Positions 1 through 30,005 of a stretch of DNA of 31,169 bases are shown here, piece by piece. Source of the DNA: a virus. Its lineage: Duplodnaviria > Caudoviricetes. The translations under genes and the position numbers were made by a program. Each line of letters starts with the position of its first letter. Position 1 is the stretch's first letter. The notes under the pieces were generated by a model. That model worked only from the letters and a program-made list of their open reading frames with translations, did no database searches and was not told the DNA's origin. Location: the IMG/VR virus record IMGVR_UViG_3300027780_000044, positions 1-31,169 of that record. One strand, written 5' to 3'.

Positions 1-15
1 TCTACAACTTGTCAT
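1..15 (-). CDS. 5' fragment (MTSCR...) of a gene running off the window edge; possibly a UvsW-like helicase
   Basis: ATG at 15-13 overlaps the upstream TGA as ATGA; only 5 codons visible; helicase guess rests on recalled gene context only. Confidence 0.3.
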
Positions 16-1313
16 ATGTTCTCCACTCGATCCTGCCATTTTAAATTGTATCCTGATACAGTACTACCCTGATCATAATACATTACTAAGTCAATTCCAT
101 TTATATATAATTCTGGATTTCTCATTGCTTGTCTAGTTAGCACTAGCGATGCAATAGGGTACCAATCACTTTTGTATAATGGCTTAGGAACTTTATTATT
201 ACTAATATACACTACTTTAGTGTTTTTGTCAACATAATTATTTAACCCCTTGGTATGTATGAATTGGTTAAATTCCCTTGCATATTCAAACTTCTCATTC
301 TCCAATCTAAACATAACACTCATTTGTGAGCTTGGTATGTAGTTTGAAAGTACACTATGGAAGCGATTTAGTTGCGTCATACAAGATGTTTCGTCTAGTA
401 CTACTAGTAACGGAAATCTATCTAACTCGTATAATGTTTGACCAAACTCAGTTACTGGCCAAGTAATATCATTAATACAAACTTCAGTTGTTTTTCTTTC
501 AACAATTAGTGTTGTTAGACTACTACAGTTGTTTGCTCGTAAACTATGTTGTACTTGCTCTTGGTCAAAATATTCTAATCCGTAATAGTTCTTTCTGTCG
601 TAGTACTGATACAGATTGCTTTCAGTTGGTAGTCCTAGGTCTGCTGTTGCACAATCAATGCCGTGCTGTATATAATTAATAAACTTATTATCTTTAATGC
701 CCGGAATATAATTAAAGCTATTCTTATCCATAGTAGTGAGCTCGTTGTATACTGACATTACTGATTCGTCAATGTCAAACTTTTGTTCAAACCGCATAGC
801 AATGTTTACTAACTTCCAAATATATTTTTCAGTTAACGGAAAGAAATGCTTGTGCTTTTCGTAGAAATAATTCTTATCATTACCGTTTTTTAATTCTTCT
901 AGTCTACTAATAACTTTCTTGTTAAACGGAAATCTAATTACAATCATTGTTTCTGTATTGCCGTCTCTACTAACTTCTTCTAACTTAACCCAATGCGAAC
1001 TATCTAACTTTCTAATTGGTAATCGTAGATTATCTAAATGGTCCTTAATAGCAATATTATGTTTAGCAAACTGTTCAGCATAGTATTCAACTAGTAATTT
1101 CTTAACTAGCTCGTGCTGTTTGTGCGTTAGTGCAGTACCACGAAACACTTGTTTAGCAATACTAAACATGATTCTATGGTTATCTTCATGCAACGTAAAC
1201 GAATGTAGGTCATGTAATTCAGGATTGGTACTAAACTTAAAGTTACTAATACTAGCAACTAGTTCTACGCAATCTTCAACGGTGAGATCATTGATGTCAT
1301 TTGTTTGCTTCAT
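12..1313 (-). CDS. hypothetical phage protein, 433 aa
   Basis: Long ORF with its own sigma70-type promoter; no firmly recognised motif. Confidence 0.8.
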   Translation of the reverse strand: MKQTNDINDLTVEDCVELVASISNFKFSTNPELHDLHSFTLHEDNHRIMFSIAKQVFRGTALTHKQHELVKKLLVEYYAEQFAKHNIAIKDHLDNLRLPIRKLDSSHWVKLEEVSRDGNTETMIVIRFPFNKKVISRLEELKNGNDKNYFYEKHKHFFPLTEKYIWKLVNIAMRFEQKFDIDESVMSVYNELTTMDKNSFNYIPGIKDNKFINYIQHGIDCATADLGLPTESNLYQYYDRKNYYGLEYFDQEQVQHSLRANNCSSLTTLIVERKTTEVCINDITWPVTEFGQTLYELDRFPLLVVLDETSCMTQLNRFHSVLSNYIPSSQMSVMFRLENEKFEYAREFNQFIHTKGLNNYVDKNTKVVYISNNKVPKPLYKSDWYPIASLVLTRQAMRNPELYINGIDLVMYYDQGSTVSGYNLKWQDRVENI

Positions 1314-1319
1314 ACAACT

Positions 1320-1348
1320 ATTATACTAGGTTATAGCTCAGAAGTCAA
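1320..1348 (-). promoter_or_regulatory. sigma70-type (early) promoter
   Basis: TTGACT-N17-TATAAT, then 6 nt to the ATG at 1313. Confidence 0.85.
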
Positions 1349-2182
1349 GTGTTTTAGTGGAATACCTTGGCTTATTTCTTCCAAAGTATATTCTGTGTGG
1401 GCGTAGTCGTTAAGCCATTGTTGCCTATCTGGCATAAGAGGTTGTTCTATATCGTGTAGGAAGTCTATGTCATTACTGGCGTCATACGCTAACGATGCGG
1501 TACCTACAAACGCTGGAATGCCGTTAATGATACTATGCACACCCGGGTTGCTAGAGTAGCTTAAAGTAGCGTGTGCGTTGTTAAACTGCATGTCAAAATC
1601 GTCATATGTTCCGCTAAGTTTTTTTGGTTGTTCCCTATAGACATTTTTAAATTCGTGTTCAATGTTTGGTAATGGGCAACGAGGATGAGGTCTAAATATA
1701 ATAGGACGTTTGCTGTATGCTTGGAGAGTTGTAATAGCTTCAATTACCCATTTACTTTGTACGGGCATTCCTACCCATTGTAAACTCTTGTCATGTTGGG
1801 CACATAGAAGAATATGTTCTCCTTGTGTACGCCAAGGCTTTAATGTTAACCCCAGTGATAGTACGCGAGTATCGTCATTGCTATCAGGCCCAAAGTAAGC
1901 GTCTCTGTTAATTCCATTTAGTCCTACCTTCCATGTTGTGCCACGTTGTATGCCACCAACTTCTAAAACTATTACTGGTTTATTTAATGCTCGGAAGTGA
2001 TGCCAAACTTTTTGGTTTCCAGCCATCCTACCATGCCAAAGCACACTCCATATAACAGCAACATCGCTATCATAATCATTGTAAGTAACGGTATGACCAC
2101 TAGCAAACAAACTGTTTGTAAAAGCATCAAAAATTGGTTTGCTATTGAGTGCGCCATTATCTGTCCATAAACTAAACTTCAT
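1331..2182 (-). CDS. GT-B glycosyltransferase-like protein, capsule polysaccharide synthesis (KpsS/KpsC-like)
   Basis: LLCAQ...D, IIFRPHP and YSSNPGVHSIINGIP motifs; paralog of the two ORFs at 2984-4926. Confidence 0.65.
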   Translation of the reverse strand: MKFSLWTDNGALNSKPIFDAFTNSLFASGHTVTYNDYDSDVAVIWSVLWHGRMAGNQKVWHHFRALNKPVIVLEVGGIQRGTTWKVGLNGINRDAYFGPDSNDDTRVLSLGLTLKPWRTQGEHILLCAQHDKSLQWVGMPVQSKWVIEAITTLQAYSKRPIIFRPHPRCPLPNIEHEFKNVYREQPKKLSGTYDDFDMQFNNAHATLSYSSNPGVHSIINGIPAFVGTASLAYDASNDIDFLHDIEQPLMPDRQQWLNDYAHTEYTLEEISQGIPLKHLTSEL

Positions 2183-2987
2183 TCCAATATGTTTCGCTCC
2201 GTGGTTGTAAAAGGTCCTTCTTTCGACTTCTACCTTCTTCTTTTCTTACACCCTTAAGGTGATCAAACCATGCTCCGAGCTCGCAATTAATTAACGGGTG
2301 TCCTTCTCCGTTTACAAGATGTCCACTAAAGTCTTTAATGTTAGGGTGCTTTATTCTAATCTTTTTTAAGACTTCATCAAACACATAACTATCATGCCAC
2401 TCTTCCATTTTAAAGATGCCGTCATCATGTTCTTCGTACACTCTTTCAAACTCTTTTAAAAATGCATCAGCACCAGGAGTTCGTAGGGTAAGTCCATACC
2501 AACCACACTCTGGCCATTTTTTCATTCTACCTAAGTAGTGTAACCATTGTGATGCAGGTACTAAGTTTCTAAACTCGCCATATGTAATAGGACTGTGTAC
2601 ATACGTGTCACCATCAATCCAAACTAAAATATCTGTTTCAAGATCCTGTGCGGCTTCAAATACTGCATACGTTTTGTTTGCAAACCGTACTGCGTCCCAC
2701 TTAAATTCTTTGTGATGATCTCTAGGACGTCTTGCAGGCCACGGACATTTACCGTTTGCTTTAGGATCATTCTTGTGTCGTTCCTTAAATGCATTAAGTT
2801 TTGGTAACGCTTGTTTAGCATCAACAACAACAATGTTTGCGCCTGGTGGAACTACAGGAATACAATCTTCTGCATATACTATTAACTTTATTGCTGGGTG
2901 AACATTCTTTGCCCAACTATCAATAAGACGTTGACCGTACTGTTCAAGTCCCGGTTGGTGGAAAGTTGTTATACATTTTATTCTCAT
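2172..2987 (-). CDS. GT-A (DXD) nucleotide-diphospho-sugar transferase
   Basis: LVWIDGDT DXD motif, EWHDSYVFD, DHLKG; start MRIKCITT chosen from ATGA overlap at 2984-2987. Confidence 0.75.
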   Translation of the reverse strand: MRIKCITTFHQPGLEQYGQRLIDSWAKNVHPAIKLIVYAEDCIPVVPPGANIVVVDAKQALPKLNAFKERHKNDPKANGKCPWPARRPRDHHKEFKWDAVRFANKTYAVFEAAQDLETDILVWIDGDTYVHSPITYGEFRNLVPASQWLHYLGRMKKWPECGWYGLTLRTPGADAFLKEFERVYEEHDDGIFKMEEWHDSYVFDEVLKKIRIKHPNIKDFSGHLVNGEGHPLINCELGAWFDHLKGVRKEEGRSRKKDLLQPRSETYWNEV

Positions 2988-3922
2988 TTTACGTACCTTT
3001 TCATCCACTGCCATGCTTCACCACTTTTCAAATCTGCGAAGCTCCAATGGCATTGTGATATTTTTCTAATCCAAACTTCTCTGTCTAATGCTCTTAATTT
3101 GTTTAACGCATCAAGTCTTTGAAAGCAAACTTCTTGTACTTGGCTTGCTCTAAAGTCTTCACATATAACAGGAACTCCTTCAATAACACTTGCTACACCT
3201 GGGCTACTGTTGTACACAATAGAACAAAATGCTGTTTGTAAATCTGCTACTATTTCCTTTTCAAAACTAATTCTAATGTTATCACCAACAATTTTCTTTA
3301 CATACTCAGGTGCTTTTTTATCGCCTGGGTGAGGTCTAATTACAATAGGTCTAGTTGTGTGTTGTCTAATTTCTGCAATCTTTGTATTAGCCCAAGTAAC
3401 AACATCTTTACCTTTCATACTCCAACCGCCATTGCGTTGTAAGCATAGTAATATGTTATCCTTGTCAGCATAGTTCCAAGGCTTTAACTTAACACCAAGG
3501 TCACGTTGTATTTTTGTCCACTGCTCATCGCCCGGACTGTCATTACAATATTCAGCTGTGTCAGCAAACACACCATCAAAACTATATCGTAAGTAATGAT
3601 GAGGTTCGTTAACTTTTGCTTTATATAAAAACAAGTTACTGTCTGCTGTAATAAATCTCTTGTTAGCTGTGTTAGCCGCAATGCTTCTACGTAAGTTAAT
3701 GTGTGGAACGTGGGCACTATTTTCGTGCATGTATCCTTGCATTACTGCTACGTCACATTGCATTACATCAAAGCCATCATATACTAATCCGTTATCACCA
3801 CTTACTCTAACACCCGAGACAAAGTTTCTAATAATATCTAACTTGTGGTTAGGCTTAAAAGGTTTATTAACTTTGTTTTTATTTCCAGGCGGAATAACTT
3901 TAGTGTAACCTATGACTCTCAT
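2984..3922 (-). CDS. GT-B glycosyltransferase-like protein (KpsS/KpsC-like)
   Basis: ILLCLQR, IVIRPHPGD, YNSSPGVASVIEGVPV; start MRVIGY from ATGA overlap at 3919-3922. Confidence 0.65.
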   Translation of the reverse strand: MRVIGYTKVIPPGNKNKVNKPFKPNHKLDIIRNFVSGVRVSGDNGLVYDGFDVMQCDVAVMQGYMHENSAHVPHINLRRSIAANTANKRFITADSNLFLYKAKVNEPHHYLRYSFDGVFADTAEYCNDSPGDEQWTKIQRDLGVKLKPWNYADKDNILLCLQRNGGWSMKGKDVVTWANTKIAEIRQHTTRPIVIRPHPGDKKAPEYVKKIVGDNIRISFEKEIVADLQTAFCSIVYNSSPGVASVIEGVPVICEDFRASQVQEVCFQRLDALNKLRALDREVWIRKISQCHWSFADLKSGEAWQWMKRYVK

Positions 3923-4926
3923 TTGATTACGCTCCAAGCATAGCCACTTAACATTTCGTCATATGTAAATTGGTTGTTTGCCAAGTATCTACACAAGTAT
4001 GTTAATTGTTTACGTCCTGGATGTTCTACAAATTCGATTCTACTAATTTTTTGTTCACAAATATCTTGAGCACAATTTGGCCCTAATGTTATTGCAGGTT
4101 TACCATAAACCATTGCTTCAAGTGCGGCAATACTATTATATGTTACTAAGCAATGTACATCGTCTGCAAGTGCCTGTTCCATTGTGTTTACACTTACACG
4201 ATCTTCTCTACTTGGCTTCTTGCGTACTTGTACTGGCCTTGACGTATGCTTTCTAATACTAGCAACTGTTTCAGCAATCCATTGCTCTAAGTCTTTATCA
4301 AAGTATTTCATTACTTTTTCACTTGGAGGAACTACTAGTATTTTACGTCCTGGTGTTGCATCTTTAAATGGAATAGCCAACGAATTAAAACGTCCGCCAC
4401 TATACCACTTGTCTGATCCAGGTTGCTCTCTGTCAGGCATGTGTAAATTTTGTAGTGCATTTTTTGCAATTCTATGATAAGTCTTTTTACCGTTTGGGTT
4501 ACGTGTGCTAGGATTGTTACCTATATAACCCGTGTCCATAAAGTAAAACTCTCTACCTCGTTCAATACACATTTTGATTAGTTTTTGTTTTCCTAATCCT
4601 CTTACTAGTAACGGAGTATCATCATCCCAGTCAACATCGTCAGCACGGATATATTTTCCGCCACTGCCTAATGCCATACCCATTACAAACGAGTCAATAA
4701 GACCAAATGATCCTTTAACTTTCTTTTCAACTTTTTTAATTCCGCTGTCAACACAAATAACAGGAGGATTCTTTACGTCCTGGAATACTTCTGAAACTGC
4801 TTCAACAGCATGCCTCTGTTCTCCAGTTGCAACGCTGTGTAAGATTTTATCAACCATTACTTTTAAATGTGGTAATATCACTCTTGTATCCCACTCACCA
4901 GTATTTTGTACAATCTCTTCTCCCAT
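3919..4926 (-). CDS. GT-B glycosyltransferase-like protein (KpsS/KpsC-like)
   Basis: ILVVPPS, VRKKP, VTYNSIAALEAMVYGKP. Confidence 0.6.
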   Translation of the reverse strand: MGEEIVQNTGEWDTRVILPHLKVMVDKILHSVATGEQRHAVEAVSEVFQDVKNPPVICVDSGIKKVEKKVKGSFGLIDSFVMGMALGSGGKYIRADDVDWDDDTPLLVRGLGKQKLIKMCIERGREFYFMDTGYIGNNPSTRNPNGKKTYHRIAKNALQNLHMPDREQPGSDKWYSGGRFNSLAIPFKDATPGRKILVVPPSEKVMKYFDKDLEQWIAETVASIRKHTSRPVQVRKKPSREDRVSVNTMEQALADDVHCLVTYNSIAALEAMVYGKPAITLGPNCAQDICEQKISRIEFVEHPGRKQLTYLCRYLANNQFTYDEMLSGYAWSVIK

Positions 4927-4927
4927 G

Positions 4928-5623
4928 TTAAACCTCCATCATTTGATACAAGCACTTCTTCCATAATTGATTATATTGACAATGTCTGTAGTTTTCAAAC
5001 CACGGACCGCCCTCAGTATAATGAATTAACTTAGGTGTGCCGTCTTGTGGTTCGCTGTAGTGTCCTACCAGCCAATTCCATTCAGGTGACAGGTTACCAA
5101 TTAAGCTGTCATCGTTTAGCCAACTAAAGCGATGCAAATACGCACCGTTAATCTCTGGCTCGTTAACTAAATCCATTGTTAGTCTTTTATTAGCAGGATG
5201 TCCACAGTTAATAAGCATCATGCTTGACCAATTCTTACGTGGATAAACAGTTTGCACTTGTCCATCCATCTTAATACCTTCTTTAGGTTCATAGTCGTGT
5301 TGCACACACATTACTGCTTTTGTATCATCTGCTTGTGCAAACAACTCTGCAATATCTGTAGTAAGTAACATATCACAATCCATGAATACTGCCCAACCAT
5401 CAAAGTTAGCAAGTTCCGGAACTAGGAAGCGAGTAAACGTAAACTCAGTACTTGCTAGTTTATCATTACCTCTATGATACCAACCTTGATCTCTTAGAGT
5501 GCTTTGTTTTAACGGATATACTTTTGCATTTGGACTATGCTGTTCAATGCTGAACTTGCATACTTGGTATGCCATATCTTCTCTAGTGTCGTACCCAATA
5601 TATACTCTAAAATCGTTGTTCAT
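4928..5623 (-). CDS. GT8-like glycosyltransferase
   Basis: IGYD, STEFTFTRFLVP, FMDCDM (DXD), YPRKNWSS, HYTEGGPWF. Confidence 0.85.
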   Translation of the reverse strand: MNNDFRVYIGYDTREDMAYQVCKFSIEQHSPNAKVYPLKQSTLRDQGWYHRGNDKLASTEFTFTRFLVPELANFDGWAVFMDCDMLLTTDIAELFAQADDTKAVMCVQHDYEPKEGIKMDGQVQTVYPRKNWSSMMLINCGHPANKRLTMDLVNEPEINGAYLHRFSWLNDDSLIGNLSPEWNWLVGHYSEPQDGTPKLIHYTEGGPWFENYRHCQYNQLWKKCLYQMMEV

Positions 5624-6294
5624 GCTTGTGTCTTTCTTATATAAACTGCCGTGGCATCAATAGTATGTATCTCTTGAGTGTTGCCAAACACCTCATGAAA
5701 GGCTTTACTACTACCTCTCCAACTATTGTAATCGTCCAAAACCATTATTCCTCCTACACTAAGCCTAGGCCATAGTGTTAATATCTCTTGTAAAGTACTC
5801 TCATACCAATCAGTATCTAACCGTAATAGTGCAATAGTGTTTGGTAAATTAGTGTCATCTAAAAGTGTTTCTTCTACAGGACCTTTAATAAAATTACATT
5901 GATGTGGCGGAATATAATTGAATACATTTGTACTAACTTCTCCAATCTCTGCTCTACACCACTGATCAAATCCATGCTTTGCTTTCTTACTATGCTTTGC
6001 ATATTTTACATCGCCGTCTGTTGTAATTTTATGATCATGTACAGTTGGTAATGTCATTCCTTCAAATGTATCAAACAACCAAAAGTTTCTTTTAGTTTTA
6101 GCATTAGCCAACCAAGCACTAATAATATGACCGCCTTTCCACACACCACACTCAACAATGTCACCTGGAATATTATTTGCATCAAGTTCTCTAACTGCTC
6201 TTACAGTCTGAGTGATACGTTGTCCACTAGTCATTGTAAATGGTTTAGCTTCTTCAACAATCCTTAATTCTTTTTTAGTTGGTATGAAATCCAT
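5620..6294 (-). CDS. TylF/MycF/NovP-family sugar O-methyltransferase
   Basis: PGDIVECGVWKGG, LFDTFEG, LRLDTDWYEST, LDDY; start at 6294 follows the upstream TAG (track start 6333 is possible). Confidence 0.9.
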   Translation of the reverse strand: MDFIPTKKELRIVEEAKPFTMTSGQRITQTVRAVRELDANNIPGDIVECGVWKGGHIISAWLANAKTKRNFWLFDTFEGMTLPTVHDHKITTDGDVKYAKHSKKAKHGFDQWCRAEIGEVSTNVFNYIPPHQCNFIKGPVEETLLDDTNLPNTIALLRLDTDWYESTLQEILTLWPRLSVGGIMVLDDYNSWRGSSKAFHEVFGNTQEIHTIDATAVYIRKTQA

Positions 6295-6295
6295 A

Positions 6296-7126
6296 CTATA
6301 CTGGAGCTCCTTCATGCCATTCATAAGCATCACTTCCGCTATCAGTATACCGTCTTTCTATATCTTCTTCAACACATTCAGTACCACGTTGTATTTCTAA
6401 TATGTGTGCATTAACTGTTAGTGATGGATTACTTGGTAAGTGCCATACTTCTTTATTGATTTCATAAGGAACACTCTTTGGTGTTAGGTAAACAATTTCT
6501 TGTCTGTCCTCCCACTCAGTTACCATTTTAACTTCGCCTTCAAGTATGTTCCATTGCTCTGCACGTTTAAAATGTTTTTGATCACTTAGTGCTTTGCCAG
6601 GGTATATTACAAGCTCTTTTACTTTGTAACCTTCATCGGGTTTGTCATCTAGTACACGCCAATACCCCCAATCACGTTCAGTCTTTTGTGTCTTCCATTC
6701 GTCTAATATCCAACTACTTGAATTCATTTTGTCCTCTCCGCCAACACCAAAGACGAAGCTAACCTTTGGGTCATGCAAGTAGTCTTCCATCTCTGGAATG
6801 TTGTCTGCTGTTCTATCCCCACCATTAGCAAAGACGACTTCGTCTTGACCTCCGATAGTTGATTGTAAGTGATGGATAGCGCCGCTGGCACTATTGAATT
6901 TGTCATCGTTTAAGCAAAGTACTACACGATCGACAATACCAAGTTCGCTAATAATAGCAACTCGATCTTTAAAGGGCATAAATGGCCGACCCTTTTTTTG
7001 AGTCAGCCATTCATCTGAGTTTAATCCAACAACTAGTTGATCACCAAGTTGTTTCGCGGCCTTAAAGTATTCTATATGGCCTGAGTGTAGTGGATCGAAT
7101 CCACCTGTTACTAGTACGTATTTCAT
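6296..7126 (-). CDS. cytidylyltransferase-like (HxGH) domain fused to a type II mannose-6-phosphate-isomerase-like cupin
   Basis: TGGFDPLHSGH, GLNSDEWL, FANGGDR, KMNSSSWIL; C-terminal RDWGYWRVL...LSDQKHFKRAEQW...EEDIER. Confidence 0.85.
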   Translation of the reverse strand: MKYVLVTGGFDPLHSGHIEYFKAAKQLGDQLVVGLNSDEWLTQKKGRPFMPFKDRVAIISELGIVDRVVLCLNDDKFNSASGAIHHLQSTIGGQDEVVFANGGDRTADNIPEMEDYLHDPKVSFVFGVGGEDKMNSSSWILDEWKTQKTERDWGYWRVLDDKPDEGYKVKELVIYPGKALSDQKHFKRAEQWNILEGEVKMVTEWEDRQEIVYLTPKSVPYEINKEVWHLPSNPSLTVNAHILEIQRGTECVEEDIERRYTDSGSDAYEWHEGAPV

Positions 7127-7131
7127 ACTAG

Positions 7132-7137
7132 TATTTA
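7132..7137 (-). promoter_or_regulatory. late-promoter-like box heading the glycan operon
   Basis: TAAATA-CTAGT-ATG; same box as at structural genes. Confidence 0.6.
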
Positions 7138-7141
7138 AACT

Positions 7142-7726
7142 TTAGCGATTTACTGTTTGTATATACTGGATTACATTTTCGGGAGTTGATACAACATATG
7201 GGTCATCATCAGATCCATCATTGTTATATCCTGGTTCAATGAAGCTTTCGTTAACAATCATGTTCTCAATATACATAGCATATCTCCATGACCTGTTAGC
7301 AAAACCTAAATGCTTCTTATTGCACAACATGCCAAGGCCGAATGTAAAGTCTGCATTACCGTCTGCTAGTAATTTAACTTTGGTACAACCTAGTTCTTTA
7401 GCCCATGCATTCATTACAAATGCATCGTTAACACTTACACAATAGACTTCGTCCACGCCTAGTGCTTTAAACTCGTCATACATTTTTTCGTATGTTGGTA
7501 GTTGTTCTGAACTACATGTTGGGGTAAATGCACCCGGAAGTCCAAAGATAACAACTTTCTTATTTGCAAATAACTCTGCACTAGATTTGTTAACCCATGT
7601 TCCGCCAATAGCACAACCACCATCGTCACCAACTTCATCACCTTCACGAAGAACGAAGTTGACTGTTGCGGGTATCGTATCCCACTTTTCAATTATTTTC
7701 TTTTCACCTGGTAATTGGTAACTCAT
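7142..7726 (-). CDS. peroxiredoxin (Prx5/redoxin family)
   Basis: GLPGAFTPTCS, CVSVNDAFVMNAW, LADGN, RSWRY. Confidence 0.95.
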   Translation of the reverse strand: MSYQLPGEKKIIEKWDTIPATVNFVLREGDEVGDDGGCAIGGTWVNKSSAELFANKKVVIFGLPGAFTPTCSSEQLPTYEKMYDEFKALGVDEVYCVSVNDAFVMNAWAKELGCTKVKLLADGNADFTFGLGMLCNKKHLGFANRSWRYAMYIENMIVNESFIEPGYNNDGSDDDPYVVSTPENVIQYIQTVNR

Positions 7727-7740
7727 TTTTCTTCCTATTG

Positions 7741-8196
7741 TTATAAACTAGCATCTTCCATGCCAGCTACTCTTAATTTAACTATGTTTGTAAGTTGCCA
7801 TTGCTTTTGATCAAGTGCTTTACAAACACCTAACCACTTGTTACGCATAAGTGCAAACTCATTAATAATCTTTTCGTAGTCGACAACGTCCGATTCGCCG
7901 TCTACGTATTTTTCGCAATCACGACTTGACAATGCTCTTGCATAGCTTTCTAAGTATTTTCTAAAAAAGCTACTTCGAAGTCTACGTAATTCAATGTTCA
8001 GGTATTCTAATATTGCTTCGAGCTCTTGTAACTGATTGAATCGTTGCTCAACCATTCCCGGCATCTCTGCCGCGGCTCTTTCAACATTACCTTTAATTTT
8101 GCATTCCATTCGCGCCTGGATCAATTCATTCTCGTAATGATCAATTGCTTTTGGAATGTTGCTAATGTCTCTAGCAATATCAGAATACCATCCCAT
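7741..8196 (-). CDS. uvsY: UvsY recombination mediator
   Basis: Helical 151 aa, LSSRDCEKYVDGE and KQWQLTNIVKLR pattern; near uvsX and gp32. Confidence 0.7.
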   Translation of the reverse strand: MGWYSDIARDISNIPKAIDHYENELIQARMECKIKGNVERAAAEMPGMVEQRFNQLQELEAILEYLNIELRRLRSSFFRKYLESYARALSSRDCEKYVDGESDVVDYEKIINEFALMRNKWLGVCKALDQKQWQLTNIVKLRVAGMEDASL

Positions 8197-8426
8197 TAGT
8201 ATTCTTCCACTTCGTCTTCGTCTACGTCGACATCTTCTTCGAGATAGTAACCAATCGCTTTGTCTAAGTTAGCATCAGAGCCAAGTGCATCTCTAAACGC
8301 TTCGTCGGTACTACCAATGTCAGCACATAGATCAACATATTTTTCTGCTACTGTTTCGATGTGCTTCTTGTCTAAGTACTCTTTAAACACTTGCCACACT
8401 TCGATAATATCTGAACCTGAATCCAA
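8196..8426 (-). CDS. small acidic hypothetical protein, TTG start
   Basis: AAGGAG SD before TTG; stop overlaps the uvsY start (TAATG). Confidence 0.75.
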   Translation of the reverse strand: MDSGSDIIEVWQVFKEYLDKKHIETVAEKYVDLCADIGSTDEAFRDALGSDANLDKAIGYYLEEDVDVDEDEVEEY

Positions 8427-8460
8427 TTTATACTCCTTAGTTTACGTTATACGAATATAG

Positions 8461-9555
8461 TTATTCGTTTGGTTGATCTTCAACATCGGTTTCGACTTCG
8501 TCGTCTTCAACTTCAGGACTTTCTTTAGCCTTTGCAAGTTTAGCGGCAAAGTCTACCATAATTGTGTCAAGAGCGTCACCGCCTGCTTCCCACACTTTAC
8601 GATACTCTTTGATCTCTTCACCTGTAGAGTCTGTGTACCTTAGTCTGTTTCCGTCTTTAACAAGCATTCCTTTTTTCTCAAACAAGTCAACTAAACCACT
8701 GTATGGGTTCATACCTGTTTCATAAGGAATTTTAACTTGTACGCCTTCGAACGGTTTTGCATAACGAGTTTTCATTACTTTACAACCAGCTCTAATACCA
8801 CGTACTTCGCTTATCTTGTTACCGTCTTGATCTTCTTTTAACTTCATTTTCTTCATTGCAACAACAATACTTGATGCATAGATAAAGCCTTGACCACCTG
8901 ATATCTTATCGTCTGGGTCAAACATATCTTGTGAAGCGTATGTGTGATTAGTACAAACTAATCCTACGTTACAACTACCAATCATGTTAACAGTATTACG
9001 GACTAATGAAGTTAGTGCTTTAGGCTTACGACCCATATCACCTTTCATATCACCCTTGTTAAACTGGTCAACATCTGTAGGTGTAAGTAACATACCTAAA
9101 CTGTCAACTACAAACAAAATCTTAGGACGTTCTTCGTCTGGCATTGTTTTATAGTCAATCATAAACGTACTAATAGTTTTAGCAACGTCATCAATCATTG
9201 ACATGTTTAGTTTAAGAAGTTTATCTTCTGATGTATCAACATCGAGAGCTTTAAGCCAACTCTCATCAAGTGCGTTCTCTGAGTCAATTAAGACTACAAA
9301 GATACCTTGATCTTGTGCCGCTTTTACAATGTTACCTGCACAGATATAACTTTTACCTGCACCAGATTCTCCTGCAAAAACAGTAACCTTACCTAGTGGA
9401 ACACCTTTGTGAAAGTCGCCACTAATAAGATAATTTAAGGCATAGTTACCTGTACTAATCCAATCAGTTGGATCGTTAAATCCACTACTCATGCCTGTGA
9501 TTGATTTAGTTAAGTTTTTACGAAACTTAGAAACGTCAAATGCTTTATTAGCCAT
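8461..9555 (-). CDS. uvsX: UvsX / RecA-like recombinase
   Basis: Walker A GESGAGKS, IDSENA, VVDSLG, GDMGRK, NHTY, ISGGQG. Confidence 0.95.
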   Translation of the reverse strand: MANKAFDVSKFRKNLTKSITGMSSGFNDPTDWISTGNYALNYLISGDFHKGVPLGKVTVFAGESGAGKSYICAGNIVKAAQDQGIFVVLIDSENALDESWLKALDVDTSEDKLLKLNMSMIDDVAKTISTFMIDYKTMPDEERPKILFVVDSLGMLLTPTDVDQFNKGDMKGDMGRKPKALTSLVRNTVNMIGSCNVGLVCTNHTYASQDMFDPDDKISGGQGFIYASSIVVAMKKMKLKEDQDGNKISEVRGIRAGCKVMKTRYAKPFEGVQVKIPYETGMNPYSGLVDLFEKKGMLVKDGNRLRYTDSTGEEIKEYRKVWEAGGDALDTIMVDFAAKLAKAKESPEVEDDEVETDVEDQPNE

Positions 9556-23808: not shown

Positions 23809-24567
23809 TTAGCCAATACTGAATCCGTAGCCTACGCCGCCAGCAATTTGTAATACAAGTTCTTGTTCTAACTTTTCCATTTCAGCTTGTGCTTCAGCTT
23901 TGAGTGCGTCTCCGTTTAGTGTCGATCCGCCTTGTGGTCCTGCAATAGTAGCAAATTTAGAACGTGCTTCGCCTAACATATACTTACAAACTGCAAGGGT
24001 ATAATCCTTAATCCATATTTTGCCTAGATAGTCGTTTAGTAATTCACTATCTGGTCTGTGATTGTACACATACATTAATAATGTTTCTTCTGCTCTAGGT
24101 CTTTGTAAAACTGTTAATTTTTTAGTTGTAGTATTCCAATTAAATTCGATAAACGAACCAAACATTCTTCCTACTAATTCTTGATACTGTGAAAACATAT
24201 CATACGTTGCTAATCCACCCATGTTACTACTTGATAATAGGTAAGTGTTTGTGTATGCCATGTTGAATGGTTCAAACTGTGTACCGCCATCACCACCTCC
24301 ACTACGTGATCCAATTGAACGTCTAAATAATTTTCTTACTTCTACTACTTCGTTAGGTAGAATGTATTCGTTCTGATCAATAATAGTAGGCATAAACAAG
24401 TATGACTCTTCAACACTATTATCACTACGTTGTCTAAATTTCCCTAAGGATTTTTGCAAAGCAGTTTCGTAGTGTATAGGATCGAGTTCAACATCAACCA
24501 TGCCACCGCCTAACATCGCAGTTACATAATCGAATACTTCTTGTTTTTGTGTGCTTAAATCGGCCAT
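23809..24567 (-). CDS. gp13: neck protein (T4 gp13-like)
   Basis: LGGGMVDVEL, WIKDYTLA, KFATIAGPQGGSTLNG, AEMEKLE. Confidence 0.85.
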   Translation of the reverse strand: MADLSTQKQEVFDYVTAMLGGGMVDVELDPIHYETALQKSLGKFRQRSDNSVEESYLFMPTIIDQNEYILPNEVVEVRKLFRRSIGSRSGGGDGGTQFEPFNMAYTNTYLLSSSNMGGLATYDMFSQYQELVGRMFGSFIEFNWNTTTKKLTVLQRPRAEETLLMYVYNHRPDSELLNDYLGKIWIKDYTLAVCKYMLGEARSKFATIAGPQGGSTLNGDALKAEAQAEMEKLEQELVLQIAGGVGYGFSIG

Positions 24568-24584
24568 ATGTCTTGTTCTCCTAT

Positions 24585-24609
24585 AGTATTTATGCTAACG
24601 ATAAATACT
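24585..24609. promoter_or_regulatory. back-to-back late promoter pair forming an inverted repeat
   Basis: AGTATTTAT-GCTAACG-ATAAATACT. Confidence 0.75.
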
Positions 24610-24615
24610 TATACT

Positions 24616-25773
24616 ATGCCAAGACTAAGTTTATATAAACCCGAAAGAGGGGCCGACTACACGTTCTTAGACAAGACGATCACCGAGATGTTTACGATTG
24701 GTGGTACCGATGTCTTTGTACACAAGTATTTAGGTCCAAACAATCCTGATGAAGCAGATGCTACTCCATCACAGCCTCGCTATGATGCAGTAAAAGAAAC
24801 TAATATTCAAGATATGTTGTTCCTCGAAAACCGGGATAGAAAATACGACCCTGATGTTTACGTTATGCGTGGTATTTACAGCGTTCAAGACATTGACTTT
24901 GATATGAGTCAGTTTGGATTATTCTTACAAAATGATACATTGTTTATGACAATACCTATCAACTATAGTGTTAAGACACTAGGGCGTAAGATAATGCCAG
25001 GAGATGTTATTGAACTTCCTCACTTAAAAGACGAGTATGCACTTAACGATTATAGTGTTGCACTAAAACGTTTTTATGTTGTAGAGGACGTGAATAGAGC
25101 CGCAGAAGGATTTACCCAAACGTGGTATCCACACTTATACAGGATTAAACTCAAACAAATTGTTGATAGTCAAGAGTTCAAAGAAATACTTGATTTACCA
25201 TCTGAAGAAGGTAGTACAAATACTTTGCGTGATGTGCTTAGTACGTACGAACAGGAAATGCAAATTAATAATGCAGTTCTTGCTCAAGCAGAAGCAGATG
25301 CACCTAGTGCAGGCTTTGACACTACGCACTTGTATACACTAGCTGTAGACGAAAATGGTAAACCGGACTTACAAACAACAGACATGAATGATCTTGATGC
25401 TAGTTCGCAAGAATTGTTAGCTGATAGAATCAATCAAACACCATCACGTAGCGGATATCAAGGATATTTACTTGGTGACGGTATACCACCTAATGGTGAA
25501 GCATTTGGACACGGTGCTGGCTTTCCTACAACTGCAATCGAAGGAGACTTTTTCTTGCGTACAGACTTTATGCCAAACAGATTATTTAGAAATGACGGCA
25601 AGCGTTGGGTTAAACAAGAAGATAATGTACGCATGTCATTAAGTAATACTGATACTAAGGCTACACAAAAAGGTAAATTTATTAACAACACTACAACTAA
25701 TCAAATTGGTGGTGAAACTGTTGTCGAAAGACAGCCGTTGAGTAAAGCACTCAAACCTAGGGCAGACAACTAA
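24616..25773 (+). CDS. neck protein (gp14-like) with C-terminal extension
   Basis: GTDVFV, MSQFGL, MPGDVIELP pattern; precedes gp15; start MPRLSLY downstream of the late box. Confidence 0.65.
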   Translation: MPRLSLYKPERGADYTFLDKTITEMFTIGGTDVFVHKYLGPNNPDEADATPSQPRYDAVKETNIQDMLFLENRDRKYDPDVYVMRGIYSVQDIDFDMSQFGLFLQNDTLFMTIPINYSVKTLGRKIMPGDVIELPHLKDEYALNDYSVALKRFYVVEDVNRAAEGFTQTWYPHLYRIKLKQIVDSQEFKEILDLPSEEGSTNTLRDVLSTYEQEMQINNAVLAQAEADAPSAGFDTTHLYTLAVDENGKPDLQTTDMNDLDASSQELLADRINQTPSRSGYQGYLLGDGIPPNGEAFGHGAGFPTTAIEGDFFLRTDFMPNRLFRNDGKRWVKQEDNVRMSLSNTDTKATQKGKFINNTTTNQIGGETVVERQPLSKALKPRADN

Positions 25774-27650: not shown

Positions 27651-28793
27651 ATGAATAAAGTTTTAGTAATCGGCGATGTAATCGTTGACAAATACATTTA
27701 CGGAACTTCAACACGGATTAGTCCAGAAGCACCTGTGCCTGTAATTACATATATTAATGAAAAACAAACGTTAGGTGGCGCAGGGCTTGTACATAAAAAC
27801 TTGCTTAGTTTAGGAGTTGATTCTACACTATATGAAACAGGACATGAATATAGTATTAAGACTAGAGTTATTTGTGACGGGCATTATGTTACACGTATTG
27901 ACGATGATAAACGTGCAAGTGGTGACGCAGTATTAGCCGTTGTATTGGCTAATGACTTTTCACAATACGAATATGTAATACTAAGTGACTATGACAAAGG
28001 TGTATTAGACAATGCAAACCAAATTATTGCACATATTACTAGTCAAGGACCTAAAGTAATTGTAGACCCTAAACGTTATGCACACGAGTATGAAGGTGCT
28101 TGGTTAGTAAAACCTAACAATAGTGAATTTACTAAATTTGAATTTGACGAATGGCAAGGTAATATTATTACTACTAGTGCAGGGGCTAACGTAGTTGCTA
28201 CAATAGACAATATTGAATATGATATACCTGTTGCACAAGCTGAAGTGTCTGATGTTACAGGAGCAGGAGATTGTTTCCTTGCTACGTTTGTATATGCACT
28301 AACAAAAGGTTACACCCATAAACGTTGTTTAGAATTATCAGTCAAAGGTGCTACCGAAGCAGTTAAACATGTAGGAACACATATCATAACAATTGATGAT
28401 ATTAATGATAGTGTTGTATGGACCAACGGCGTATTTGACATACTACATATAGGTCATTTAAAGCTTCTACGACACGCACACACGCTTGGTAAACACCTCG
28501 TGGTGGGCATTAACAGCGATGCGAGTGTGAAGCGTTTAAAAGGTGATTTAAGACCCATTAATAACGAGCAACTACGCAAAGAAGCATTATTAGAATTAGG
28601 GTTTATTAACGAAGTTGTTATTTTTGACGAAGATACACCACAAGAAACTCTCGAAATTGTTAGACCAGACATTATTGTTAAAGGTGGCGATTATACTGTA
28701 GCAACGACAGTAGGAAATGAGTTAGCTGAAGTAGTTATCTTTCCAACAGTAGACGGACATAGTACAACAAATTTGATAGAGAGGATGACATGA
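27651..28793 (+). CDS. hldE: bifunctional heptose-7-phosphate kinase / heptose-1-phosphate adenylyltransferase
   Basis: RISPEAPVPV, LSDYDKG, VDPK, DVTGAGD; NGVFDILHIGH, GINSDASVKRLKG, KGGDY, HSTT. Confidence 0.92.
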   Translation: MNKVLVIGDVIVDKYIYGTSTRISPEAPVPVITYINEKQTLGGAGLVHKNLLSLGVDSTLYETGHEYSIKTRVICDGHYVTRIDDDKRASGDAVLAVVLANDFSQYEYVILSDYDKGVLDNANQIIAHITSQGPKVIVDPKRYAHEYEGAWLVKPNNSEFTKFEFDEWQGNIITTSAGANVVATIDNIEYDIPVAQAEVSDVTGAGDCFLATFVYALTKGYTHKRCLELSVKGATEAVKHVGTHIITIDDINDSVVWTNGVFDILHIGHLKLLRHAHTLGKHLVVGINSDASVKRLKGDLRPINNEQLRKEALLELGFINEVVIFDEDTPQETLEIVRPDIIVKGGDYTVATTVGNELAEVVIFPTVDGHSTTNLIERMT

Positions 28794-29608
28794 ATATATT
28801 GATTACAGGCACAGATGGATTTATTGGAAAACATCTTGCGGTATACTTACAACACAAGGGACATAACGTTGAAGGGTTTGAATGGAAGCCAAACGTTATA
28901 CCTGATCCTGAACCATATGATAGAGTAATTCATCTAGGTGCTATTAGTAGCACTACTGAAACAGATATTGAAAAGGTAATGGAACAAAATTACGAGTTCT
29001 CAATGCGACTCCTACAACTATGTGATCAAAAAGGTACTTCATTAATGTATGCTTCTAGTGCTAGTGTGTATGGCGACACGTTTGCAGAAAATTCTAAACT
29101 GCAACCACAAAGTCCTTATGCATGGTCAAAGTATTTGTTTGATAGATTTGTAATGCAAGTGCCAGAGTTTATGGTTAATGTACAAGGATTTAGATTCTTT
29201 AATGTATACGGTCCAGGCGAAGAACACAAAGGTGACCAACAAAGTGTATTTGGCAAGTTTGAAAAACAAGCCAAAGAAACAGGAGTTATTAAAGTTTTTG
29301 AAGGCAGTGATAAAATAGAAAGAGATTTTATTCACGTTGGTGATGTATGTGAAATTATTGAAAAATTTATCGACGTTGACAACACAGACATTTGGAATAT
29401 TGGTACAGGGTATCCAAGGACGTTTATGGATATTGCTACGTTGTATGCTGTGAAGTATGATGCTAAGATTGAAGAAATTCCAATGCCATCAGAGCTACAA
29501 GGGCAGTACCAGTATTACACATGTTCAGACAATAAGAAGTTAATTAATAGTATAGGTGTTCATAAATTCAGAACAATAGAGGAGTATGTAAATGCCAGCA
29601 AGACATAG
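28790..29608 (+). CDS. hldD: ADP-L-glycero-D-manno-heptose 6-epimerase
   Basis: TGTDGFIG, HLGAISSTTE, YASSASVYG, YAWSK, FRFFNVYG, YQYYTCSD. Confidence 0.88.
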   Translation: MNILITGTDGFIGKHLAVYLQHKGHNVEGFEWKPNVIPDPEPYDRVIHLGAISSTTETDIEKVMEQNYEFSMRLLQLCDQKGTSLMYASSASVYGDTFAENSKLQPQSPYAWSKYLFDRFVMQVPEFMVNVQGFRFFNVYGPGEEHKGDQQSVFGKFEKQAKETGVIKVFEGSDKIERDFIHVGDVCEIIEKFIDVDNTDIWNIGTGYPRTFMDIATLYAVKYDAKIEEIPMPSELQGQYQYYTCSDNKKLINSIGVHKFRTIEEYVNASKT

Positions 29609-30005
29609 CGGTAAAGTAGATAAAGGTTGGGGATACGAATTAATTTGGGCCACTAACGATCAATACTGTGGTAAGATTATGGTATTTGATAGAGTTGGTG
29701 CTAAGTTTAGTATGCACTTTCATAAAGAAAAAGACGAATCATGGTTTGTAAATGCAGGGTCATTTAAGTTACGCTACATTGATACATCAACTGCATTAGT
29801 AATGGAAAGAGTTTTAAACTCCGGCGATACATGGAGAAATCCTCCATTAATGCCGCATCAATTAGAAGCATTAGAAGCCGGTAGTAGTATTACTGAAGTA
29901 AGCACTCCTGACTCTATTGAAGATAATTATCGTATTGCTCCAGGTGATAGTCAACCACCACCGCCACAACAAGAGATTGTTAATGATCCAAATACACAGG
30001 CGTAA
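29592..30005 (+). CDS. cupin (sugar isomerase-like)
   Basis: KGWGYE, SMHFHKEKDESW, PH, EVST. Confidence 0.8.
   Translation: MPARHSGKVDKGWGYELIWATNDQYCGKIMVFDRVGAKFSMHFHKEKDESWFVNAGSFKLRYIDTSTALVMERVLNSGDTWRNPPLMPHQLEALEAGSSITEVSTPDSIEDNYRIAPGDSQPPPPQQEIVNDPNTQA

Follow-up and report, generated by a model that had tools for sequence, protein, structure and literature searches.

Several described systems come close to a seven-gene block on the minus strand (7126-1331; genes numbered G1 to G7 from the 5' end) of the window, our term for the whole stretch of 31,169 nucleotides analysed here (positions 1 to 31,169 of the IMG/VR virus record IMGVR_UViG_3300027780_000044). The virion cassettes of mycobacteriophages (clusters F1 and O; Freeman 2023, via PMC11600133 and PMC12619734) likewise combine soluble tandem glycosyltransferases with an O-methyltransferase and no lipid-carrier genes, and in cluster O an O-methyltransferase and three glycosyltransferases glycosylate the capsid and tail tube (PMC11600133). 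The block differs in belonging to a myophage and in adding a sugar-activating enzyme and enzymes with the predicted fold of transferases for Kdo (3-deoxy-D-manno-octulosonate); tblastn with G3, G4, G6, G7 and the TylF gene gave no mycobacteriophage match. Capsid glycosylation in the chlorovirus PBCV-1 (A064R, A061L; PMC9614988) also relies on virus-encoded glycosyltransferases and methyltransferases, and G6 matches the fold of its capsid glycosyltransferase (2p6w), but the host is eukaryotic and the match is at fold level only, tied with a bacterial GT6. The giant viruses CroV and Fadolivirus too encode predicted Kdo pathways in clusters (PMC9614988). Cyanophage "LPS" (lipopolysaccharide) clusters, as in P-SSM2 and S-SCSM2R, share a HIGH-type nucleotidyltransferase, cupins and glycosyltransferases with the block (PMC7824862, PMC12801897), and in S-SCSM2R a G3 homolog lies three genes away from kdsB/kdsA; however, they occur sporadically and are interpreted as altering the host surface, whereas the block keeps a fixed core of six genes behind a conserved late-type box. 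The glycosylation encoded in flagellin O-glycosylation islands (FlmG, Maf; PMC7591256) is cytoplasmic and lipid-free and uses ulosonic acids, and such islands are a frequent location of bacterial G3 homologs, but the block is without their tetratricopeptide repeat (TPR) glycosyltransferase or Maf enzyme. The retaining beta-Kdo transferases KpsC (GT107), WbbB (GT99) and KrkA (GT140) resemble the block in the predicted fold of G7, in the RxHP of G7 and G5 and in the spacing of an acidic residue; they differ through low identity, through the lack of QXXXD in G4, G5 and G7, and because here three paralogues occur in a phage without capsule export genes. Virions of XacN1, a sister of the Rak2-like phages, contain Schiff-stained glycoproteins (PMC5852040), and core glycosyltransferases are reported from another jumbo lineage, with virion glycosylation named as one option (PMC12619734). 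No description of the operon, or of KpsC-fold enzymes in phages, was found in the literature searched, a search that left most subscription papers outside; PMC13326640 and PMC10955285 likewise had no bearing on the family.

We lean towards reading the block as a system for late cytoplasmic glycosylation of virion proteins. To our knowledge, virion glycosylation by phage enzymes has been proven in only a few phages. The first-pass annotation, made from the sequence alone, had described seven coupled open reading frames (three ATGA overlaps, an 11-nt overlap and two 1-nt gaps) encoding a nucleotidyltransferase-cupin, a TylF enzyme and five glycosyltransferase-like proteins. The coordinates bear out the layout, with starts at 7126, 6294, 5623, 4926, 3922, 2987 and 2182 and junctions from G1 to G7 of +1, -4 (ATGA), +1, -4, -4 and -11 nt, and Pfam matches, alignment of paralogues and predicted folds bear out the gene assignments. 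The features are as follows.

7132..7137, minus strand: TAAATA late-type promoter box, 5 nt 5' of the G1 ATG, kept in relatives
6296..7126, minus strand: G1, nucleotidyltransferase of HxGH type joined to a cupin of mannose-6-phosphate-isomerase type (PF01467, PF01050)
5620..6294, minus strand: G2, TylF/NovP/MycF-family sugar O-methyltransferase, accessory (PF05711)
4928..5623, minus strand: G3, GT8-like GT-A glycosyltransferase with a DCD motif (PF01501, E 1e-5; phrog_28018)
3919..4926, minus strand: G4, Kdo-transferase-like GT-B paralogue of degenerate type (aligned to G5 and G7; motif counts)
2984..3922, minus strand: G5, Kdo-transferase-like GT-B paralogue that carries QRxxGW and RxHP but lacks the nucleophile Asp (alignment, motifs)
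2172..2987, minus strand: G6, GT-A glycosyltransferase with a DGD motif and a GT6/GT8/PBCV-1 A064R-like fold (AlphaFold2 [AF2], Foldseek, VIA)
1331..2182, minus strand: G7, GT-B enzyme with the predicted retaining beta-Kdo transferase fold, QHD(131)KS and RPHP (AF2, Foldseek, VIA, motifs)
1320..1348, minus strand: sigma70-type promoter of the next gene, TTGACT-17-TATAAT (sequence; likely end of the late unit)

The late unit likely ends at this last promoter (1348-1320). The gene that follows, of 433 aa (12-1313, minus strand; near-consensus sigma70 promoter), always lies between G7 and a helicase gene and has no family match.

Within the window, TAAATA stands no more than 45 nt upstream of nine genes (sheath, both tube, both neck, both terminase and two virion genes) and is absent from that interval at the genes for single-stranded DNA-binding protein (SSB), uvsX, uvsY, peroxiredoxin and deoxynucleoside monophosphate (dNMP) kinase and at the gene after the block. 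The box before G1 is thus, as had been proposed, the one used by the sheath, tube, neck and terminase genes. We read it as a late promoter because of the classes of gene that carry it and because of the T4 late-promoter consensus. Box counts in relatives were made on 159 related loci, reduced to 100 distinct G1 upstream sequences; the loci being related, these counts are not independent events. TAAATA precedes G1 in 90 of the 100, where shuffled sequences would give 10.7; in 81 its distance is exactly 5 nt. It persists while the gene upstream of G1 differs between relatives. Control regions carry it rarely (SSB 0/48, uvsX 2/72, uvsY 2/91, gene after the block 1/52), a virion gene in 16/16. Where G6 is inverted, a back-to-back TAAATA pair stands before G6 and G7 in 22 of 23 distinct cases; at colinear loci the box is found at G7 in 0/50 and at G6 in 2/50. 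A gp55-type late sigma factor is encoded on a contig of the same subclade (phrog_12791, E 2e-74), and late transcription of the block probably depends on a sigma factor that the phage itself encodes.

Three side observations concern the same box. The divergent neck genes share a back-to-back TAAATA pair (24567-24616), laid out as in the inverted G6/G7 junctions of relatives. Upstream of SSB (10696-10673, minus strand) a TAAATA about 97 nt before the start overlaps sigma70-like hexamers, and SSB-uvsX may be under dual control. At loci L014, L017, L048 and L063 a 231-aa gene, which looks like a homing endonuclease, has an ATGA overlap with the G1 start and accounts for some of the missing boxes.

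Hydropathy reveals no transmembrane-like stretch in any of the seven proteins (19-residue maximum no higher than 1.38), and KpsMT, Wzx/Wzy and Wzm/Wzt do not occur among 70 representative neighbour proteins from 80 loci. The earlier remark that flippase, exporter and membrane protein are missing therefore holds, as does its picture of a soluble glycan-building unit under a late-type box, which the box counts, the late sigma factor and the hydropathy scan support well; the membrane export or polymerase genes of a capsule or O-antigen locus are not found at the block. As in phage virion glycosylation systems, tandem glycosyltransferases, soluble by hydropathy, occur with a methyltransferase and are tied to morphogenesis by the box and by contexts in other phages.

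What the first-pass annotation overlooked, while right in naming five glycosyltransferases as glycan builders, is the predicted Kdo-transferase fold of three of them and the kdsA/kdsB genes of most relatives. For G4 to G7, nothing in Pfam, PHROGs or NCBIfam led to an assignment that could be used, and profile searches of these proteins against PDB sequences came back blank or at chance level; folds alone resolved their identity. For the G7 model (AF2 predicted local distance difference test [pLDDT] 93), Foldseek ranks 1 to 13 are all KpsC or WbbB, and the four best of 48,161 chains in VIA are the KpsC N-terminal and C-terminal domains, WbbB and KrkA (Z 14.1, 12.8, 12.6 and 11.0; top row 235 residues aligned at a root-mean-square deviation of 3.5), with the next unrelated row at Z 10.5. 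About 230 residues align with the retaining beta-Kdo transferases at 11-15% identity, and the model has a modified GT-B fold with a reduced N-terminal domain, as these enzymes do. Four Tetraselmis virus 1 proteins are among its nearest viral folds (template modelling score 0.65-0.78). G4, G5 and G7 are paralogous, G4 and G5 being 19-23% identical paralogues, and fall into separate clades of a midpoint-rooted tree of 49 sequences; by homology only, G4 and G5 would share the fold of G7. PF05159 matches no protein of the window and is weak in 3 of 111 family members.

The family-defining motifs of retaining beta-Kdo transferases are QXXXD and (K/R)xHP (PMC12887879, PMC10148158). The HP of the CMP-binding motif (CMP, cytidine monophosphate) is present in 80/80 G7-labelled and 81/81 G5-labelled sequences and in 0/57 of G4, which has KP in its place and no Gln. 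In G7 and G5 a Gln follows the first strand of the C-terminal domain, and the motif there takes the form QxD in G7 and QxxxG in G5, and is absent in G4; an accessory paralogue that the window does not carry has QXXXD in 25/25. Among 279 distinct G7-, G5- and G4-type proteins, the acidic position of Q-H-D/E-K-S in G7 is kept in 164 of 164 motif-matched sequences, and one more distant homolog has Asn there. Since the acid, Asp131 of G7, lies 33 residues before the Arg of RxHP, compared with 32 in KrkA, G7 may keep its nucleophile in a loop two residues shorter. G4/G5/G7-type enzymes probably act as GT99, GT107 and GT140 do, on a CMP-ulosonate.

The fold also bears on the idea that the block adds sugar chains to phage DNA shortly before packaging. 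There are phage glycosyltransferases that decorate 5-hydroxymethylcytosine (5hmC) with heptose, with a Kdo-like sugar and with chains as long as trisaccharides, once with a cytidylyltransferase partner (10.1101/2023.12.21.572611), and the block is situated between uvsY and a helicase gene. The top folds for G7 are Kdo transferases, however, not the T4 beta-glucosyltransferase, and such DNA systems depend on an enzyme of the 5mYOX/TET or thymidylate-synthase-like kind. PF00303 was found in 0/5 complete phage genomes with cassette families and in 0/5 partial jumbo contigs (27-57% complete), with positive controls; Tet_JBP (PF12851) exceeded its cut-off in 0/5 and 0/5 of the same sets, where no control genome passed it either; and a C5-methylase was found in 0/5 of the partial contigs. 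We regard DNA hypermodification as improbable. The earlier preference for a virion protein over DNA gains from the gene contexts in other phages and from the lack of a hydroxymethyl-base enzyme in the five complete genomes, and stands as the best inference only, held with slightly more belief than doubt.

The block is common and stable. G7 has 401 relatives among IMG/VR stretches, and its family profile comprises 4,941 proteins (90% clustering) among 7,135 candidates. In 82 loci that span uvsY to the gene after the block, G1 and G3 to G7 are all matched in 80, G1 being missing in two; these six genes are the core, and 32 of 74 loci have a fusion of G3 with G4. TylF is accessory: it occurs in 12 of the 82 loci, all within a peroxiredoxin-bearing subclade, so that the methyl-capping once proposed would hold for one subclade only. 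Relatives carry other insertions around the core, namely FkbM and other methyltransferases, sulfotransferases, pyruvyl-transferases, GT8/GT25/GT29 genes and nucleoside diphosphate (NDP)-sugar enzymes. Downstream, at a site covered by 40 loci, kdsA and/or kdsB are found in 28 of the 31 loci outside the window's subclade (both genes in 20). In one relative (L260:10551-11642) an S-adenosylmethionine (SAM) synthetase adjoins kdsA/kdsB.

The remaining enzymes fit a glycan pathway at varying resolution. G1 matches CTP_transf_like (PF01467, E 3e-13) and the MannoseP_isomer cupin (PF01050, E 1e-13), with HSGH at residue 14; it falls under every NCBIfam equivalog cut-off, and likely makes an NDP-sugar. 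G2 is, by sequence, a clear TylF-family enzyme (PF05711, E 1e-35, 123.5 bits against a cut-off of 23; NovP E 3e-22 and MycF E 6e-16 among solved structures). G3 (by Pfam) and G6 (by model) both combine a GT-A fold with a DxD motif. For G3, PF01501 is just above cut-off and D82-C-D84 is invariant in 20 sequences; it may also resemble plant Cdi, a GDP-L-galactose transferase (PMC12168206). For G6 (AF2 pLDDT 93), Foldseek leads to GT-A enzymes (GT6/GT8/PBCV-1 A064R-like), the VIA top is a tie at Z 13.1 between the PBCV-1 capsid glycosyltransferase and BoGT6a (2p6w, 4cj8), and D125-G-D127 is invariant in 48 sequences. A predicted complex of G3 with G4 scored 0.18 against a mark of 0.32 and weighs neither way.

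Taken together, an operon of soluble sugar enzymes, transcribed late, would furnish virion proteins with an oligosaccharide that is acidic and sometimes methylated, while they are being assembled in the cytoplasm. G1, whose domains are seen and whose substrate is inferred, would turn a sugar phosphate, by isomerisation and activation, into an NDP-sugar. G3 and G6, the GT-A enzymes, with fold and DxD in evidence, would add neutral sugars. G7, and possibly G5 and G4, would then attach Kdo, or an ulosonic acid related to it, drawn from a CMP donor, a donor suggested by the predicted fold together with kdsA/kdsB in most relatives; in the window's subclade, CMP-Kdo would come from the host. TylF would finally O-methylate the chain, and in relatives different methyl-, sulfo- or pyruvyl-transferases would do the tailoring, so that coats would differ from strain to strain. 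Ser/Thr of capsid, tail or fibre would serve as acceptor, reached through a presumed initiating enzyme.

Homologs in unrelated phages, searched among 50,697 annotated phages, are in several cases neighbours of structural or lysis genes. The Caulobacter siphoviruses Colossus and CcrSC have G3 and GT-B homologs between tail and lysis genes, in Colossus accompanied by a Maf-like gene and a GT9 gene. In podovirus MW202512 a G3 homolog is inside the structural operon, between capsid and adaptor genes, and in MW202713 homologs of G6 and the GT-Bs adjoin the terminase together with a TibC-annotated gene. Cellular loci (the best 80 of 142 GTDB matches to G3, minus nine contigs judged to be phage, leaving 71) come from few clades, and their counts stand without a genome-wide baseline: within 7 kb of G3 there are flagellar genes in 12, a TPR protein in 19, Maf in 3 and HlyD (type I secretion) in 4, any of these in 27; TylF accompanies 7 of the 71. 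A chromosomal cluster of G3, G4-like, TPR, G6 and QXXXD-GT-B genes, set among housekeeping genes in two marine alphaproteobacterial single-cell genomes (L188 and L190, 6992-12409), is a cellular cognate of the core.

These bacterial neighbourhoods raise the prospect that the target is a host protein (a flagellin or pilin receptor) or that the product is a soluble oligosaccharide. Bacterial G3 homologs do group with flagellin, FlgK/FlgL, Maf and TPR genes, and the enzymes of the block are soluble. The block is, however, without a substrate-recruiting TPR domain, and late timing and the placement among structural genes in other phages favour a virion target; we give this alternative little credence.

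Several observations weigh against glycosylation of virion proteins as we propose it. The QXXXD nucleophile motif is found in 0/80 G7 and 0/57 G4 sequences, and the G5 of the window reads QRNGG; QXXXD being missing from the core GT-Bs, G4, G5 and G7 fall outside GT99, GT107 and GT140. At the usual downstream site kdsA/kdsB are found in 0 of 9 covered loci of the window's subclade, and two large partial contigs of that subclade likewise yielded neither of them. Among the proteins of the block none could be identified as an initiating protein glycosyltransferase, and phmmer with TPR, TibC-like, GT9 and Maf-like queries had no match in two partial (incomplete) genomes and 80 loci. Nothing like a terminator is seen between the peroxiredoxin gene and G1, so the block is not separated from the upstream uvsX-uvsY-prx genes and earlier read-through is possible. 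The available text of the PA5oct preprint lists only sigma70-like promoters (TATAATA/TTGAC), and for this reason the late role of TAAATA is something we infer. In Pelagibacter phage Mosig the homologs follow ribonucleotide reductase genes, outside the structural genes. Finally, 15 of the 71 cellular G3 loci adjoin WaaA-like or KpsC genes and 6 of 71 a sugar-phosphate transferase, both surface-polysaccharide contexts. Two candidates were rejected: L176:4048-5043, as a GT9-like initiating enzyme, had no PDB or Pfam support, and a C-terminal Ser on the tail tube, as a sign of an acceptor, was dropped for want of a comparison set.

The surface-polysaccharide contexts would suit enzymes that, late in infection, remodel a glycan of the host surface (LPS core, O-antigen or capsule linker) on lipid carriers of the host and so block superinfection or grazing. 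KpsC, WbbB and KrkA all work on surface glycans (PMC12887879, PMC10148158), HldE- and HldD-like genes are also in the window, the standard published reading of cyanophage sugar clusters is of this kind (PMC7824862, PMC12801897), and the missing flippase could come from the host's export machinery. Against this, a late-type control that survives gene inversion would leave little time to change the surface of a host about to lyse, the core order is stable in 80/82 loci, homologs are found within the structural operons of small podoviruses, and none of the seven proteins has a membrane anchor. Host-surface remodelling seems to us unlikely, if less so than either a DNA or a host-protein target, and glycosylation of virion proteins remains the reading we prefer.

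The source, judged by sequence, is an uncultured marine jumbo phage related to PA5oct and Rak2. The window is a myophage fragment (CheckV completeness 9%) whose terminase is 54% identical to that of Pseudomonas phage PA5oct and 44-45% to those of Rak2-like phages, and sheath, tube, neck, terminase, SSB, uvsX and uvsY genes are all present in it. Because a 186-kb contig of the same subclade is rated 53% complete, the phage genome is probably about 350 kb; the host is probably Gram-negative. Fourteen marine RNA runs (7 studies) contain the stretch 1331-9555; contigs from four runs cover the seven-gene block, which speaks for presence in RNA libraries and not for timing, strand or starts, and contigs of two runs bridge uvsX to G1, a single transcript not being implied. 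Phage contigs of this lineage have been binned into GTDB metagenome-assembled genomes (e.g. Marinimicrobia and Methanobacteriota; L180, L182, L183, L189, L202, L218, L247), which is probably contamination and not host evidence.

Other possible modification modules were seen. In the window, HldE-like kinase/adenylyltransferase, HldD-like epimerase and cupin genes (27651-30005, plus strand) come directly after neck, tail-terminator and NUDIX genes, with a TAAATA box before the NUDIX gene, and are a possible second, heptose-type sugar module. In two further genomes, G001 (L171-L172, 23-48 kb) and G006 (L267), a large cluster of genes for radical-SAM enzymes, Asp/Asn-hydroxylase-like oxygenases and possible GT2-like proteins directly follows baseplate and tail genes and may be another system for modifying virions. 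Genes for GTP cyclohydrolase I and QueE-like proteins (L170:2567-4522, L269:5217-6990), together with a Vut_1 transporter that relatives carry, point to 7-deazaguanine metabolism. A suspected DpdA-like DNA modifier in G006 could not be confirmed, and we therefore make no claim that 7-deazaguanine accounts for DNA protection.

We would suggest, tentatively and with more doubt than belief, that a widespread lineage of marine jumbo phages coats its particles with a variably methylated glycan containing Kdo or another ulosonic acid, by means of an unnamed, mostly viral family of Kdo-transferase fold that is shared with an algal giant virus and has a shortened QxD nucleophile loop in G7, the accessory tailoring genes acting as phage "serotype" cassettes. 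The G4/G5/G7 family, still without a name, would represent new chemistry on the Kdo-transferase fold. Homologs occur in cultured phages (CcrColossus, CcrSC, Mosig), in which the target can be tested directly. If the block does glycosylate virion proteins, glycan coats would belong to the core features of a marine jumbo-phage lineage that is common, and the usual host-surface reading of marine phage "LPS genes" would be reopened.

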